From contig CAYFPS010000015.1 of NCBI GenBank assembly GCA_964345075.1, forward strand, positions 561 through 64,560: a stretch of DNA of 64,000 bases, in the 5' to 3' direction. The notes under the pieces are model-generated. The model made no database searches, was not told the DNA's origin, and saw nothing but the letters and a program-made list of their open reading frames with translations. A program made the position numbers and the translations under genes. Positions 1,669 through 64,000 of the stretch are shown piece by piece. Every line of letters begins with the position of its first letter. Position 1 is the first letter of the stretch. The DNA is from an uncultured Bacteroidaceae bacterium (GTDB lineage Bacteria; CAIWAD01).

Positions 1669-3270
1669 CTAATCCAGCGCTTCAAAAGAACCCAAACCGA
1701 AGTGTGAGCCATAACCAAGCAGCAAGGGGCCGAAGACGGCATCCGGAAAATCAATGCGCAAACAAAGACCCAAATCCTGCGGTGGCGGCGTTCCATTTCT
1801 ACGAGTGCGTATCACATGGCGCATTCGTCTGGCCCGGTCTGTCTGGACATCTACCAGTTCAACATGCACGGGATCCGGCAGGCCGCGAAAGGCCAGCTCT
1901 CTGCGTACCTGTTCTTCAACGGATTCCTTGTTGCGCTTGATAAATCGAGGTGGAACAAATGGCGTTGCGCTGATCCAGCTGCGGGATCCTTGTAATCCAC
2001 CAAACAGCTGCCTGATTCGGCTACCAGCTTCTCCTGCCAGCCGTTCCAGCTCATCCCTGTTACAAAGAGAAACCAGCTTGATGCCAAGATCAGCAGCCAG
2101 GCCTTTCGACCAGGTCCGGCGTAATGCGCGAATCGCCTGCTGGGCAAGGTCGTCAAGACCCATGGGAGCCCAAACCAGTAAATGATCGAGGTGGCCGTCG
2201 GCATCCAGATCAAGCGGAAGCAGGTGCGCGTGCAAGTGCTGATGCTCAAGCCGCTGTTCATTGGCATTCTTTCCGCTGAGTACCTCCGAGTGCCCGCCGA
2301 TGCGGGAGGCATGACTGATCAAGGATCGATGCACCAGCTCTGCCAGCGGGAGTCCCCGGTTAACTGAAGGCAAAAGACCACGGCTCCCATTTGGCGGCAC
2401 CAGCCCCAGCAGCGCCATGGTGACTTTTGCAGCTACCTTTCGTCTGGCAGCGATTGGCAGCGAACTGGAAAGCGCGTCTGCAGGGCGATGGTAACGGACC
2501 CAGCGGCTTCCGGGTGGCTGTGTCCAGCCTGCACGCTTCAAGCTTGCTGTGTCCTGCTCAAGACAGGCAAGAAGCCCTGATGGAAACAGGCTTTCCAATG
2601 CGTTCTGCTTTTTCAGCCAGGCCTTGGTCGGCTTCTGTCCTTCACGCAGTGGCGGCAGCTGCGCCTGCTCTGCTTGCAGCTGGATGCCACGCCAGGCCAT
2701 GTATTCCGCTTCCGGCAGTGGCGCAAGCAGGCGAACCGACTCGCCAGCGATACCCCCGGCTGCCAACTCTTCAATGGCTTCGCACCAGCTACCCTCAATG
2801 TGATCGGCTTCCTCGATCAACTTGCCCTGCACCCAGCTTTCCGCGCGACCCAGATAGGGCAGAGCTTCAATCAATTGCCTAAGCCACTGAAGCGCTTCGC
2901 GCGACAGCTCTACATCCCAGCGCACCAGCAGTGCTCCGGTCTCGATGCGCGCCCATGTGTCAAACACAAGTGTCGTGTCTTCTCTGCCATTTTTCATTTG
3001 ACTGAGAGGCATGTAGTGTCGGCTATGCGCGGTGCTGGCCGGTGGAAGCAGGTAAGATGGCAGGACCGTGGACAGCTGTTGCAGGACTTCGTGCACGGCC
3101 TCTGGTGGACCATTTTCGTCCCACAATCCCGTGGAGTAGCCGGTTGCCAGCAAGGCGCGCAGCAGTCGCCAGGGTGAAGGCGGCCACTCGATGGCCCCCT
3201 CATTCACCTGTTGGTCCCACGGTGTTGCGTGATAGCGCTTGGCCGGAAAGCGCAATTCAAGCGCAATCAT
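1669..3270 (-). CDS. csb2: Type I-G CRISPR-associated protein Csb2 (Cas5/Cas6 fusion)
   Basis: 533 aa. N-terminal RYHATPW...[20 protein letters not shown], and C-terminal G-rich loop [16 protein letters not shown] typical of Csb2. Position in the cas operon fits. Confidence 0.92.
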
Positions 3271-4247
3271 TCCGAGTCACCTTCTGCCGTTTCTTTTCCC
3301 TTCTTCAGCGCATCCGTGTACTCGTGTTGTCCAACAGTCATCTTCTCTCTGCAGGGAGCAATCCAGCCGGGCAAGGCTGCACGAAGCTCATCAAGCGTGG
3401 GAAGAGTGAACCCGGCCGGCTGGGCTGCTGCAGGTGACTCGGTAACGGCAGCAAGATCGCAGGCTGTTCTCAGCCGAAGGCCATGATCGAGCACATGCCG
3501 GAGCTTGTAGAGGGCAAGGCCGATCAGGAGCTGCTCGACATCCTTGCCAAGGCCATAGCCGCGGATCTGCATCAGGTCCAGATTGACATGCAGCACAATT
3601 TTGTCGGCAGTGAACTCATCACGGGCAAAGGGAACATTGCCATAGCCATCTTTTGTAACACCGGAGGGATTCACATGATCATTCTTGACGCCACCCGAGG
3701 CTGCCATTTGCACCTGTTCAGCCTCAATGAAGGCCGAAAGCGCGCGTGATACACGAAGCCGACCACCAGCCAGATCCTTCTTTGCCAGAAAAACGCCATG
3801 CAAAAGGGATCCGATATCTTTCTGCAAAAGAACTTCTGCCAGCAGTCGACGATTGATCGGCCCCTCCTCCAGACCTGCAAGCGACTCCTTCAATTCATTC
3901 ATGAAGGTCTTGTTCGTTCCTTCGAGCAGGTAGGGGCTGTTGATTCTGTGGGCTTCAAGAATCGTGTCGGTCAGAAAAGCGCCATTTCTTGTGATACGCA
4001 CATGAGACAGGCCATCGGCCTCCGCGACAAGATCCTGTCGCGCTTCATCCCATAAGGCCTGCTCCAGGCGATTCGCCATGCTCTGCGTGCTTTCAACCAG
4101 CAGCCCTGTTCCCCTGGAGCTCGGATAGGTTGCAGCACCAAGTCCCGGAAAGCCGGTTGGTTGAAAGCGCTGCCCCTGCAAGGGGGCAAGGGGAATGGAA
4201 AAGAGAAGGCGTGAATGAGAGGCCAGTACGCTTAAATCGATGCTCAT
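3267..4247 (-). CDS. csb1: Type I-G Cas7 backbone (Csb1)
   Basis: 326 aa. [37 protein letters not shown] and [12 protein letters not shown] motifs of Csb1/Cas7u. ATGA overlap with csb2. Confidence 0.93.
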
Positions 4248-61613: not shown

Positions 61614-61785
61614 TGCAAACCTTAACAGACCGACGGCCAGTCAGGTGATTGTTCAAGAAAAATGACCACTCAGGGCAAATTGACCTGAAGGCCACGGAAA
61701 TCGTCTTTGTGCAAATGGATGTCTTGTGGTGATATCTAATACGGTTGCGCTAAATCACGCGCTTGAAACGAACATAATCCAGACA

Positions 61786-64000
61786 TCAATCAGGATAAAA
61801 GCCCAGTTCCAGCTTTGCAAGAACTTTTTTGGCATCAGGCGAATTGCATTGTTCAGACAGCCGCTCATGGAGCTCGAACCAGCGCTGCTCGTGCCAGGCC
61901 CTGAGCTCATCCAGCCAGCTGACGCTAAGCGATGGATCAATCGCGTGGGCAGAATTGGCAAGGACTGCCAGAAGACCTGCTTCGTCGCTGATCGGTCCCC
62001 TTTGACGGTACTCGCGAATGCCCTCATCAAATTCCTGAAGATCCAGCTCAACCGGGCAATCCACATGGATACGGTAGCCCTCACTGTCATGCTCAAGGCA
62101 ACCGGGAAAGCCCGTGGACTTAAGGAGTGCGCGCACGTGTGATACATAGACATAGAAACTGTTGAGAAGCTCCTCGCGATCGCGCCCCTTGACGCGCCAG
62201 ACCTTTTCGATCAGATCAAGCGGTGCCCAGGCCCTTCCGGGATGCCGCCAGCGCTCGACCACCAGAAAAGCAAAAAGCTCACGGAAAATGCCGTTACCAA
62301 GACGACTGGTTGCGAGCTCTTTCCCCGCAGCAATCAAACGCAGCGGTCCGATCAACTTGACTTGGAGGCCAATAGATTCTTTCTGCCAATTTGCTGGATC
62401 GGGCAAGTCTGGAAGAGTATGCTCAAGGCGTATCACGGCCTGCTCCAGACCGTTCATTTCATCAAGATCAGCCTTGTGGCGCCAGCGGGGAAGTTCCCGC
62501 TTGATGCGATCAAGTTGCTGCGCAAGAAGCTCGCGCGGGTTATCGTGTGACAAATTAATACCAAAGGCTCTCAGGCGAGGGCCTGGAGAACATTGTGATT
62601 CAAGCAGCGAAAGCCACAGTCCTCTTGCTCTGTGCGACATACGATCACGACTTGTATCACCGGCAAGCCCATCAAGCCTGACTTTCGGATAGAGTCGCTC
62701 AAGCTCGTGCATCCAGCCGCGCGACTGGCGAAGCCACGCAGCCAGCAAGGCCTCAAAGAGTCTTGCGCGATGCAGTATACGGTCATTGTCGAGCTTGGCC
62801 AGACGCGCCAATTGCAGGCGAAAGAGAATCTCGTCGTGGCCTGTATCACGCTGCATGCGCTCTTGGAGGCTTTGGCTGATTGAATGCCACACCCCACTCT
62901 GTCCGCTTGCCTTTTCAGCAAGGCAAGCACATTCCGCCAGCTGCGCAATGGCCTGTGCTCGCGGATTGATGTTGTGCTCTTCCAGATTACTGATCATGTG
63001 AGACAGCTCGTCCGCCGCCGGCCCTGGCTTTCCGGCACGCAGCTGGTTAACCCAGAGCGCGGCCTTGAGCTCTGCCGCGCGCTGACCGTCAGGCGGAGAA
63101 ATCTTCAGCTGCGACTCGGCGAGCTCCTCAAGACGCCTGAAGCTCTTTGCAGGCAAGCGACCGCCCATTGCCTTGCGATCCAGCACTTGAATCTCGGCGT
63201 ACTCGTGCGATGGCCGAATCTGGGGAAGCTTTTCCAGAACAGGTTCCAGACCTGCAAGCCAGCGCTCGGCGCTCTGCCAGTCACCATCGGCGAGAAATGG
63301 AGCTGTGGCGTTTATCCGGAAGGCCGCAGTCAGAAACTCAAGGGGCGCGTGAAGAACGAGAGCCTCCACCTCGCGTAGAATTTCACAGGCTTGTGATACA
63401 CGACCCTGCTTGAAATGGCTGGTGGCAGCGGCGTCAAGATCCGGCAAGGCCATGCGCAGGTTGCCGCGGGACAGATTCCAGTTGGCCGCTGCCAGCAGGT
63501 CCTCTATGCAATCACCCGATCGGCCGAAGTGCATTTTTCTCCTTGCGACACGCGCCCGACCGAAGATCTCCGGCTCGAAGCGGGCAACTTCCCGCGCACT
63601 CTGGATGGCAGGCTCCTGCCAGCGCTCCAGGGCCAGTCCGTCACGCGCCCGGCCTGCCGAATCCACGATGATGGTCACCAGACGGTCGTGGTTCCAAGGG
63701 TCAAGCTGCTGCCCCTGCTGCTGGTAGAAATCCTCCAGCACAGTCAGCCAGCCTGCGGGATCACCAACGATGTCGTGTGACAGAAATAGTTCCAGAAGCC
63801 TGATCTGCGCAAAGCGATTTTCACGAAACGAATCGTCCGCGGGAAAGGCCGCGCGCAGTGCATCTGCATCTACAAATCCGCGAATCGTCTTCTGGTCATT
63901 CTTTAGCAGACGATTCATCGCAAAGTCGATCTTTGCCGTGGCAAGCAGGTGCGGCTCACACTCTACCTCGAGTCGCTTAAGCCACGAACCGATCTGATTG
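61786..64000 (-). CDS. Large helical/TPR-like protein with C-terminal SARP-type wHTH; paralogue of 57720-60632; 5'-truncated by the window
   Basis: The frame is open from base 63999 to the track start at 63918. C-terminus VKLIGPLRL...FRELFAFLVVERWRHPGRAW...LNSFYVYVSHVRALL...WLDELRAWHE. Confidence 0.65.
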   Translation of the reverse strand, partial: NQIGSWLKRLEVECEPHLLATAKIDFAMNRLLKNDQKTIRGFVDADALRAAFPADDSFRENRFAQIRLLELFLSHDIVGDPAGWLTVLEDFYQQQGQQLDPWNHDRLVTIIVDSAGRARDGLALERWQEPAIQSAREVARFEPEIFGRARVARRKMHFGRSGDCIEDLLAAANWNLSRGNLRMALPDLDAAATSHFKQGRVSQACEILREVEALVLHAPLEFLTAAFRINATAPFLADGDWQSAERWLAGLEPVLEKLPQIRPSHEYAEIQVLDRKAMGGRLPAKSFRRLEELAESQLKISPPDGQRAAELKAALWVNQLRAGKPGPAADELSHMISNLEEHNINPRAQAIAQLAECACLAEKASGQSGVWHSISQSLQERMQRDTGHDEILFRLQLARLAKLDNDRILHRARLFEALLAAWLRQSRGWMHELERLYPKVRLDGLAGDTSRDRMSHRARGLWLSLLESQCSPGPRLRAFGINLSHDNPRELLAQQLDRIKRELPRWRHKADLDEMNGLEQAVIRLEHTLPDLPDPANWQKESIGLQVKLIGPLRLIAAGKELATSRLGNGIFRELFAFLVVERWRHPGRAWAPLDLIEKVWRVKGRDREELLNSFYVYVSHVRALLKSTGFPGCLEHDSEGYRIHVDCPVELDLQEFDEGIREYRQRGPISDEAGLLAVLANSAHAIDPSLSVSWLDELRAWHEQRWFELHERLSEQCNSPDAKKVLAKLELGFYPD

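Follow-up and report, generated by a model that had tools for sequence, protein, structure and literature searches.

What maintains a single short word at about one copy per kilobase, in both orientations and mostly inside genes, in the chromosome of an uncultured bacterium? The question is raised by a 64,000-nucleotide stretch of DNA (hereafter the window; 56.7% G+C, 93% coding) at positions 561 to 64,560 of contig CAYFPS010000015.1 (GenBank assembly GCA_964345075.1), assigned to an uncultured Bacteroidaceae bacterium, in which an earlier note, made from the sequence alone, had singled out the 7-mer GTATCAC (complement GTGATAC) as a candidate new iterated sequence. We found that its 8-mer form, TGTATCAC, is a DNA-level, lineage-wide iterated word, comparable in kind to the DNA uptake sequence (DUS) and uptake signal sequence (USS), or to the highly iterated palindrome (HIP) HIP1. 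Native DNA retains it at some 1 to 2 copies per kb through selection or drive whose target is the DNA and not the encoded proteins or RNA, and a sequence-specific process preserves each word site across the clade.

Abundance of the word in the window

The copy numbers given in the earlier note were all reproduced: the window holds 72 copies of the 7-mer, 42 as GTATCAC and 30 as GTGATAC on the plus strand, every example coordinate is present, and 57 of the 72 have a T at position -1 and form TGTATCAC. The base 3' of GTATCAC is a purine in 58 of the 72 copies (A 25, G 33, C 11, T 3), in line with what had been noticed before, and the second base shows a weak preference for G. Outside positions -1 to +8 the information content of the flanks is approximately zero, indicating that TGTATCAC is a short word and not a piece of a longer repeat; a dispersed element of the repetitive extragenic palindromic (REP) or miniature inverted-repeat transposable element (MITE) type was rejected on the same grounds, the flanks not being shared. 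The control words were as rare as had been described, with 4 copies of GTATCAG, 3 of GTATCAT and 1 of GTATCAA on the plus strand. The pseudo-palindrome TGTATCACA, also proposed earlier, is true of only the 25 copies in which A comes next and does not describe the others. The reverse complement of TGTATCAC is GTGATACA, and the word lacks the palindromy of HIP sequences.

Compared with the 72 copies observed, dinucleotide-preserving shuffles gave 2.8 +/- 1.8 copies (largest value 9), and Markov models of order 1, 2 and 3 predicted 2.6, 5.1 and 8.4. Among all 8-mers of the window, TGTATCAC ranks first in over-representation (57 versus 2.8 expected, z = 33). The excess itself thus stands, but the single earlier estimate of about 11-fold does not, since enrichment of GTATCAC ranges from 6.5- to 27-fold with the null model. 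HIP-type words are 15-300 fold over-represented in all frames; here the 7-mer reaches 27-fold and the 8-mer 42-68 fold, in five frames. Likewise, the DNA uptake-enhancing sequences (DUES, that is, DUS and USS) are single short words present about once per kb in both orientations, and the window has 72 copies in 64 kb, against 2.8-11 expected, in a ratio of 42:30.

Coding context

On a gene map built from open reading frames (ORFs), Pfam and NCBIfam matches, and synteny with relatives, 67 of the 72 copies lie in coding sequence, which equals the 93% coding share of the window. All five frames without a stop contain copies (sense 16/10/9, antisense 11/21), the empty sixth being the one that would read TGA, so that the earlier description of copies mostly within genes, in several frames and both orientations, holds. 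A peptide or RNA motif was rejected as the source of the word because five frames and both strands are used; Rfam matched a single element of the window, a tRNA at 29410-29482.

An excess that vanished under an amino-acid- and codon-preserving null had been named beforehand as grounds for abandoning the idea, and this excess persists. When synonymous codons were shuffled within genes, keeping protein and codon usage, the 7-mer appeared 10.7 +/- 3.0 times (at most 23 in 500 shuffles) against 67 observed, and TGTATCAC appeared 4.5 +/- 1.8 times against 54 observed in coding sequence. The excess is therefore a signal at the DNA level, for the 7-mer approximately six-fold over the codon-preserving null. 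Shuffling codon order gave a lower expectation of 4.2 copies of the 7-mer, indicating that the protein sequences too are shifted towards compatible peptides, among them C-D-T, V-S-R/Q and L-Y-H. Rare codons are drawn into the copies, which contain 12 of the 51 ATA, 16 of the 124 GTA and 16 of the 146 TCA codons. For example, the secA gene (26369-29359, plus strand) carries CTT GTA TCA CGC at 27260, the case of unusual codon use that had been cited before, and at the conserved SecA residues A-S-I-T-L, E-V-S-E-I and G-V-I, word-bearing genomes use AGT ATC ACG, GTA TCA C and GTG ATA C, whereas word-poor relatives encode them with other synonymous codons.

Conservation of sites and recognition profile

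In the alignment of window positions 34754-51521 with the relative L169 (84.7% nucleotide identity), 22 of 25 GTATCAC sites are kept, compared with 34.9% for an arbitrary 7-mer (binomial P = 6e-8), and identity is 0.92-1.00 at positions -1 to +6 of the sites and falls to background directly outside. In the alignment with L081 (91% identity), all five sites are kept. With these two alignments pooled, 61 of the 63 third codon positions that fall within copies are identical (97%), as opposed to 5848 of 8333 (70.2%) elsewhere (Fisher P = 1.8e-7). Individual word sites are thus under selection even at silent codon positions; conservation of sites between genomes beyond background is also a property of HIP-type words.

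We also pooled 110 kb of word-rich core sequence, in which TGTATCAC occurs 104 times versus 1.5 expected, and counted its one-mismatch variants. Four are enriched as follows: CGTATCAC (26 versus 1.6 expected), TGTGTCAC (24 versus 3.6), TGTAACAC (16 versus 1.1) and TGTATTAC (9 versus 0.4). The variants TG[A/G]ATCAC are enriched three- to four-fold and changes at C8 at most about three-fold, while changes at G2, at A7 or from C6 to a purine are at background level. This profile fits graded tolerance by position, as at a protein recognition site. On this model, TGTATCAC would be an asymmetric 8-bp site at which G2, A7 and C8 are strict, position 6 accepts only a pyrimidine, and T1, T3, A4 and T5 tolerate change in part. 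Window sites that differ in L169 or L081 are mostly the enriched variants TGAATCAC, TGTATTAC and GTGTCAC, the others being GTTTCAC, GTATCAT and one site with two changes; this agreement between enriched variants and those seen at differing sites fits mutation balanced by selection or drive.

Distribution in the clade and in foreign DNA

To follow the word beyond the window, DNA of relatives was fetched around SecA and around a CapA-like gene. No exact match to the window SecA protein is on record. It shares 97-98% identity with proteins on short JGI contigs, 75-79% with those of metagenome-assembled genomes (MAGs), one of them source-labelled Candidatus Delongbacteria, and 60-70% with those of deeper relatives, with all others in the Fibrobacteres-Chlorobi-Bacteroidetes (FCB) group at 58% or less; by these protein identities the window lineage is related to Candidatus Delongbacteria. 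A scan of a genome collection with SecA returned nearest matches of 42-58% identity, all without the word, indicating that the lineage is not closely represented there, and among the matches listed from a metagenome scan, L089, L090 and L102 were useful.

The 72 copies of the 7-mer in the window (versus 2.6 expected) are a 27-fold excess, and excesses were found in L169 (85% nucleotide identity to the window; 24 versus 0.75, about 32-fold), in L081 (91% nucleotide identity; 6 versus 0.48, 13-fold), in L085 (SecA 70% identical; 26 versus 1.67, 16-fold) and L171 (33 versus 1.91, 17-fold), which lie on the same 3.72-Mb contig, and in L088, the outgroup in the SecA identity matrix (SecA 60% identical; 15 versus 1.9, 8-fold). 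Among members of higher G+C, L170 (61%) had 11 versus 1.0 and L090 (64%) 6 versus 0.56, both 11-fold; L083, L087 and L086 (62-65%) had 5, 4 and 2 versus 0.95, 0.61 and 0.64 (3-7 fold); and L082 (71%) had none versus 0.34 expected. The density is 0.65 to 2.1 per kb in independent assemblies with SecA identity down to 60%, against a background of 0.083 per kb (224 copies in 2.7 Mb) in other FCB-group and assorted bacteria. TGTATCAC is a property of the whole clade, strongest in members of moderate G+C. Because the word-bearing assemblies come from four independent sources (JGI, ENA, NCBI and Logan), in which the same sites recur, both a basecalling or consensus artefact and an excess confined to the window, the two further outcomes that the earlier note had regarded as fatal, are excluded. 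Dialects of the word were sought in word-poor sister lineages but found no support, since the top words of L082 and L086 proved to be local tandem or palindromic repeat arrays, with the exception of GTATAC (see below).

Native and foreign DNA could be compared in L171 and L085, which together cover 40 contiguous kb of the 3.72-Mb contig ctg38548l. The core flanks (G+C 0.55-0.59) contain 58 copies in 28 kb, or 2.1 per kb, whereas the 12-kb island between them (G+C 0.44-0.52; L171 14516-22940 and L085 13504-22988) contains one. As with DUES, then, the word is depleted in recently acquired DNA in this genome; TGTATCAC is specific to native DNA and nearly absent from newly acquired DNA. The low-GC stretch is probably a recently acquired defence island, and its genes encode AbiTii, a DUF4365/TPR protein, Hypoth_Ymh, a transposase-like helix-turn-helix protein and a 1099-aa protein without assigned function. 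A scan of viral contigs for two copies within 30 bp, which is silent on the phages of these hosts, yielded among the dense matches listed only a 9-bp-periodic, collagen-like coding repeat (GGT ATC ACC).

A second word, GTATAC

Third among the over-represented 6-mers of the window is the palindrome GTATAC, often found within CGTATACG, with 14 copies versus 1.4 expected and 6.4 +/- 2.2 under the codon-preserving null; they lie at 7328, 18475, 24187, 26936, 28600, 32585, 36607, 37068, 37752, 41862, 43475, 50355, 54607 and 62775. It is the top 6-mer in L086 (11 versus 0.3 expected) and in L090 (4 versus 0.25) and is frequent in L169 (7 versus 0.41), but is not enriched in the single genome represented by L085 and L171 (4 versus 3.2) or in L088 (1 versus 1.9). 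Of nine comparable window sites, eight are kept in L169 or L081. From the counts of GTATAC and TGTATCAC across relatives, the clade has two iterated words whose intensities vary independently. To judge by its form, GTATAC resembles the site of a type II methyltransferase, and it behaves in the manner of HIP sequences.

What maintains the word

Words of this type are known from two settings. The uptake receptor is ComP in Neisseria, and ComN is the predicted receptor in Pasteurellaceae. DUES are asymmetric and non-polar, shape coding sequence and are rare in foreign DNA (10.1101/2025.10.24.684340; PMC1939737), and about half of their copies lie in terminators or intergenic inverted pairs (10.1101/2025.10.24.684340). 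TGTATCAC resembles the DUS of Neisseriaceae and the USS of Pasteurellaceae in being a short asymmetric word, present about once per kb in both orientations without polarity, placed inside genes in several frames where it has shaped codon and amino-acid choice, accompanied by enriched mismatched variants and rare in foreign DNA. It differs in its host, an uncultured FCB-group lineage, in its length, in its location and in its lack of dialects, as set out below. HIP1 (GCGATCGC), also eight bases long, is 15-300 fold over-represented and kept by selection (PMC5861425); it is phylum-wide in cyanobacteria and linked to methyltransferases, and some lineages have alternate words (PMC4390886). TGTATCAC shares with HIP1 its length, its density, its occurrence in coding and non-coding DNA alike, the evidence of selection and the uneven intensity across a deep clade, as well as a second word that may accompany or replace the main one in some lineages, and the role of HIP1 is itself debated, with transformation, repair and nucleoid structure all proposed. 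Apart from the phylum, the difference is that HIP sequences are palindromic and contain type II methyltransferase sites, whereas TGTATCAC is asymmetric, with a higher A+T content than the genome that carries it. Methylated HIP1 is reported to increase the efficiency of transformation by as much as 100 fold (10.1101/2024.09.10.611283), and HIP1 has been proposed as an uptake-recognition sequence (10.64898/2026.06.24.733823), so that the DUS/USS and HIP1 kinds may be one.

By analogy with these systems, the explanation that we place first, tentatively and at somewhat less than an even chance, is that TGTATCAC is a self-DNA word promoting transformation, a function known for DUS/USS and proposed of late for HIP1; these are the two known kinds of element with such behaviour. 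During natural transformation, fragments carrying TGTATCAC, possibly methylated, would be preferentially bound, taken up or recombined, and conspecific DNA would displace resident alleles more often than foreign DNA. Such a bias would retain old copies, fix new ones and leave recent islands without the word. The narrower proposition, that TGTATCAC is a true uptake or transformation-enhancing sequence unchanged across a phylum-level clade, appears to us possible but rather unlikely.

Several observations weigh against a self-DNA word. At 8 bp, TGTATCAC is shorter than DUS (10-12 bp) or USS (a 9-bp core plus flanks). Its copies follow the coding fraction instead of terminators, where about half of DUES lie, and are not concentrated in inverted pairs: the two tight inverted pairs, 9881/9899 and 40306/40338, are both intragenic, and no terminator-like hairpin overlapped GTATCAC in the 6.6 kb scanned (9400-16000), a region that includes 9881/9899, the tightest pair, along with four of the five copies that fall outside called genes. 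A role as a terminator component was rejected on this basis, and the DUS-like arrangement of inverted pairs in terminators, suggested earlier as a check, was not found. In addition, one word is retained without dialects across very deep divergence, down to 60% SecA identity, although DUS splits into dialects within one family, and the cas operon of the window, a usually mobile system, is not depleted of the word. Family matches revealed no pilin or competence genes in the window or the fetched loci, and no methyltransferase gene in the window. To our knowledge, this uncultured group has no cultured member and natural transformation is not known in it. Finally, two independently varying words look more like a repertoire of methyltransferase sites than like the target of a single uptake receptor.

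That last point leads to the strongest alternative, an unlikely one in our estimate, in which the word has no function of its own and arises from repair linked to methylation, along the lines of Elhai's model for HIP. The word would be targeted by an asymmetric DNA methyltransferase of the host, methylation-dependent mismatch repair or strand discrimination would guard its sites, and mutations creating new sites would be preferentially fixed, saturating near one site per kb. The observed density of about 1 to 2 per kb is what this model predicts, the copies are distributed in proportion to coding and non-coding DNA without a link to terminators, and GTATAC is a typical type II palindrome that varies independently, as a changing set of methyltransferases would. 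Moreover, TGTATTAC, the product of deamination at C6, is the most enriched neighbour of the word, and the persistence of one word across deep divergence recalls HIP1 across cyanobacteria (PMC4390886). On the other hand, a single methyltransferase usually marks only one strand of a non-palindromic word, about 250 kb of sequence from the clade showed no methyltransferase gene, and the copies are spaced in a Poisson-like manner (coefficient of variation 1.10 over the 64 kb, close pairs without excess) and not evenly. Strong site-by-site conservation, seen here too, favours selection over replenishment by biased repair (Xu et al., PMC5861425), though Elhai's model likewise protects existing sites.

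Less probable again is that the word is bound by a nucleoid-associated or chromosome-organising protein, whose role would be to structure native DNA or tell it from foreign DNA. The word has properties suited to such a site, being selected, asymmetric, present in both orientations, native-specific and graded in its tolerance by position, and Xu et al. proposed a nucleoid role for HIP1 from its periodicity at 10 to 90 kb (PMC5861425). No regular or even spacing and no periodicity were found within the 64 kb, a window too short for the 10 to 90 kb scale. Known nucleoid proteins, moreover, favour degenerate or AT-rich sites, as opposed to an exact intragenic 8-mer enriched 27 to 68 fold, and no candidate protein was identified.

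A Chi-like signal for RecBCD, AddAB or a defence nuclease, without replication-direction bias, would make DNA degradation give way to recombination, thereby protecting self DNA; we consider it improbable to a greater degree still. Like Chi of Escherichia coli, TGTATCAC is an over-represented and conserved 8-mer of the core genome, and HIP1 has been suggested to act partly as Chi (10.1101/2024.09.10.611283). Orientation speaks against it: by window strand the ratio is 42:30 and by transcription 35:32, a third sample gave 11:13, and the 29:30 over the 40 contiguous kb of L171 and L085 rejects even a 65% skew (z about -2.3), so that the strong bias of Chi or of FtsK-orienting polar sequences (KOPS) is found neither in the window nor in that stretch, and a polar Chi or KOPS was rejected as the identity of the word. 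The Chi and KOPS sites known so far show clear polarity; Chi follows the direction of replication and is enriched only a few fold, compared with 27 to 68 fold here.

Amino-acid, codon or dinucleotide composition, a repeat family, and errors of assembly or base calling can be set aside almost entirely as the source of the word, since, despite proteins somewhat rich in compatible peptides (10.7 versus 4.2 copies in the two shuffles), the excess survives the codon-preserving null (67 versus 10.7 +/- 3.0), five frames and both strands are occupied, flanks are uninformative beyond -1 and +7/+8, the same sites recur in independent assemblies, drawn from four sources, that are 85 to 91% identical, and the word is nearly absent from an island on the same contig as word-rich core. 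The remaining probability goes to some explanation not yet imagined. The earlier note had offered an uptake system, a methylation- or repair-driven motif and a nucleoid-protein site; the iterated DNA-level word of the DUS/USS or HIP1 type that these readings have in common stands, and the evidence does not choose among them.

The note's statement that the motif is undescribed also agrees with the literature searched, in which neither TGTATCAC nor its complement was found as a stand-alone word, the 25 listed of 5,757 substring matches appearing to be mostly primers or constructs; to judge by title or abstract, iterated words are not the subject of any of the 21 papers there that mention Delongbacteria. 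Resemblances to the DnaA box TTATCCACA, the CRP half-site TGTGA and the BaeI and BciVI sites were rejected, as spacing or sequence does not fit.

Copies and neighbouring genes in the window

In the following account each copy is oriented as GTATCAC with flanking bases in lower case, its strand is that of the window, and f denotes the frame within the coding sequence (CDS). The left end is occupied by a type I-G cas operon (1-9114, minus strand), comprising Cas4g/Cas1g (1-1665), Csb2 (1669-3270), Csb1/Cas7g (3267-4247), Cas8g1/Csx17 (4244-6448) and Cas3g (6445-9114); effector and adaptation genes are complete and no CRISPR array is present in the window. It bears eight copies in 9.1 kb, the full density, as the earlier note had observed of the cas genes, yet their third-position GC (0.49-0.60) is below that of their neighbours. 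Csb2 has cGTATCACat at 1809-1815 (+, antisense f0); Csb1/Cas7g has tGTATCACgc at 3746-3752 (-, sense f0) and cGTATCACaa at 3991-3997 (-, sense f1); Cas8g1/Csx17 has tGTATCACag at 4666-4672 (-, sense f0) and tGTATCACga at 6442-6448 (+, antisense f0); and Cas3g has tGTATCACag at 6683-6689 and tGTATCACgg at 7367-7373 (both +, antisense f1) and tGTATCACgc at 7800-7806 (-, sense f0).

A homocysteine S-methyltransferase ORF (9508-10227, minus), which begins at profile position 48 and is possibly broken or frameshifted by assembly, contains tGTATCACga at 9881-9887 (-, sense f1) and tGTATCACac at 9899-9905 (+, antisense f1). Between called CDS follow tGTATCACtg at 10608-10614 (-) and tGTATCACgc at 10681-10687 (+), and CDS 11932-12723(+) has tGTATCACcg at 12364-12370 (+, sense f0). 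A subtilase cluster (13055-21918, plus) of three to four paralogues with Peptidase_S8 and CarboxypepD_reg domains has 13 copies in 9 kb. Here, CDS 13055-15115(+) contains tGTATCACag at 14133-14139 (-, antisense f1), cGTATCACgg at 14544-14550 and cGTATCACag at 14568-14574 (both +, sense f1); tGTATCACga at 15333-15339 and cGTATCACga at 15668-15674 (both +) lie between called CDS; and one subtilase is split over ORFs 15865-17064 and 16988-18718, possibly a broken gene or an assembly frameshift. The first of these ORFs (+) has tGTATCACgc at 16349-16355 and tGTATCACag at 16826-16832 (both -, antisense f1), the second (+) has tGTATCACag at 17664-17670 (-, antisense f1), tGTATCACag at 17729-17735 (+, sense f0) and cGTATCACaa at 18528-18534 (+, sense f1), and CDS 19042-21918(+) has tGTATCACca at 19520-19526 (-, antisense f1), gGTATCACgg at 19610-19616 (+, sense f1), tGTATCACag at 21010-21016 (+, sense f0) and tGTATCACga at 21372-21378 (+, sense f2).

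Further to the right, tGTATCACag at 22153-22159 (+, antisense f1) lies in CDS 21927-22262(-), tGTATCACac at 22906-22912 (+, antisense f0) in CDS 22217-23824(-) and tGTATCACgg at 24301-24307 (-, sense f2) in CDS 23821-24537(-). SecA has tGTATCACgc at 27260-27266 (+, sense f0) and aGTATCACgc at 27810-27816 (+, sense f1), the latter site being present also in L081 and L085. CDS 29517-30464(+) has cGTATCACat at 30330-30336 (-, antisense f0), CDS 30457-31392(+) has tGTATCACgg at 30625-30631 (+, sense f0) and CDS 32698-34275(+) has cGTATCACgg at 32906-32912 (+, sense f1). In CDS 34717-36918(-) are tGTATCACga at 35743-35749 (-, sense f2), tGTATCACga at 36140-36146 (+, antisense f1), tGTATCACgc at 36240-36246 (+, antisense f0; TGAATCAC in L169) and tGTATCACcg at 36350-36356 (+, antisense f1). 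The copy aGTATCACgg at 37615-37621 (-), between called CDS, is absent in L169; ORFs 36954-37553 and 37683-38177 match by synteny a single 400-aa gene in that relative, possibly because the gene is broken or the assembly has a frameshift. CDS 39674-40138(+) has tGTATCACgt at 40078-40084 (+, sense f2), and CDS 40139-43120(-) has tGTATCACtg at 40306-40312 (-, sense f0), aGTATCACcg at 40338-40344 (+, antisense f1), tGTATCACag at 40822-40828 (-, sense f0), tGTATCACgg at 42250-42256 (+, antisense f0), and tGTATCACcg at 42492-42498 and tGTATCACct at 42681-42687 (both +, antisense f1).

In the next group of genes, CDS 43087-44868(-) has tGTATCACcc at 43878-43884 (-, sense f0); CDS 45147-45977(-) has tGTATCACat at 45452-45458 (+, antisense f0) and tGTATCACac at 45547-45553 (-, sense f1); CDS 45978-46666(-) has tGTATCACgc at 46328-46334 (-, sense f2); CDS 46635-47606(-) has tGTATCACgg at 47134-47140 and tGTATCACgc at 47422-47428 (both +, antisense f1); and CDS 48044-49633(+) has tGTATCACgg at 48930-48936 (-, antisense f1), tGTATCACaa at 49150-49156 (+, sense f2) and tGTATCACgg at 49503-49509 (-, antisense f1). 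CDS 49634-51625(-) contains gGTATCACct at 49957-49963 (-, sense f0; GTTTCAC in L169), tGTATCACgg at 49970-49976 (-, sense f2), tGTATCACcc at 50203-50209 (-, sense f0) and tGTATCACaa at 50809-50815 (+, antisense f0), and CDS 52726-53088(+) contains tGTATCACgg at 52938-52944 (+, sense f2). CDS 53124-55415(-) has tGTATCACtg at 53420-53426 (-, sense f0), gGTATCACac at 53963-53969 and tGTATCACaa at 55058-55064 (both +, antisense f0) and tGTATCACca at 55075-55081 (+, antisense f1), and CDS 55363-56208(-) has tGTATCACag at 55711-55717 (-, sense f2) and tGTATCACgg at 56192-56198 (-, sense f1). The longest word-free gap (56199-62138, 5.9 kb) is marginally unusual (P about 0.06) and of normal G+C, and holds a Na/Ca exchanger gene and two ORFs (970 aa and 214 aa) without a family match. 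Beyond it, CDS 61786-63999(-) has tGTATCACac at 62139-62145 (-, sense f0), cGTATCACgg at 62430-62436 (+, antisense f0), tGTATCACcg at 62654-62660 and tGTATCACgc at 62843-62849 (both +, antisense f1) and tGTATCACaa at 63393-63399 (-, sense f0).

Other features of the window and its relatives

Tandem repeats of 12 bp occur in or near coding sequence at 34334-34494, 34653-34684 and 51531-51603 of the window and at 22275-22360 of L082. For example, GTCCGACCAGTA is repeated 13 times inside ORF 34294-34629, and a similar 12-bp repeat, CCAACCCCGGGA, is present in L082. These repeats encode four-residue repeat proteins and are the source of the GTAGTCCGAC k-mer signal, so that GTAGTCCGAC was rejected as a CRISPR repeat. 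Beside the 12-bp-repeat ORF, two adjoining multihaem cytochrome c genes (31466-34275, plus), conserved in L081, suggest extracellular or periplasmic electron transfer in this organism. Two relatives have iterated sequences of their own. In L083 (duplicate L084), CAGGGTCA occurs eight times between 2679 and 22555 versus 0.9 expected, seven of them on one strand, and is a candidate polar (Chi- or KOPS-like) word in this high-GC relative. In L086 (6200-6800), six copies of a 28-bp perfect palindrome, GTAGGGGTCGTTCGCGAACGACCCCTAC, lie approximately 117 bp apart in or beside a called gene.

Significance

Selected and grossly over-represented words are known from few lineages, namely DUS in Neisseriaceae, USS in Pasteurellaceae and HIP1 in cyanobacteria, and the function of HIP1 is still under debate after 30 years. 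TGTATCAC, asymmetric and located inside genes, is akin to HIP1 and the uptake sequences, comes from a new phylum-level lineage and forms an independent case in an unrelated, uncultured clade, together with a second, palindromic word. It separates features that are confounded in the known cases (palindromy, location in terminators and family-level dialects) and offers new material for testing the roles of such words in transformation, repair and the nucleoid. In practice, being about 14-25 fold denser than in other bacteria, the word can serve as a marker for binning and for the detection of foreign islands in Delongbacteria-like MAGs, and it would be the first element to put into DNA constructs for any transformation of these organisms. 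If it is a true uptake word, neither the FCB group nor any uncultured candidate phylum would have had one before, and it would join the very few from beyond Neisseriaceae and Pasteurellaceae; self-selective natural transformation would then be widespread in these environmental bacteria, and TGTATCAC would provide an asymmetric counterpart to HIP1 for asking what iterated words do.

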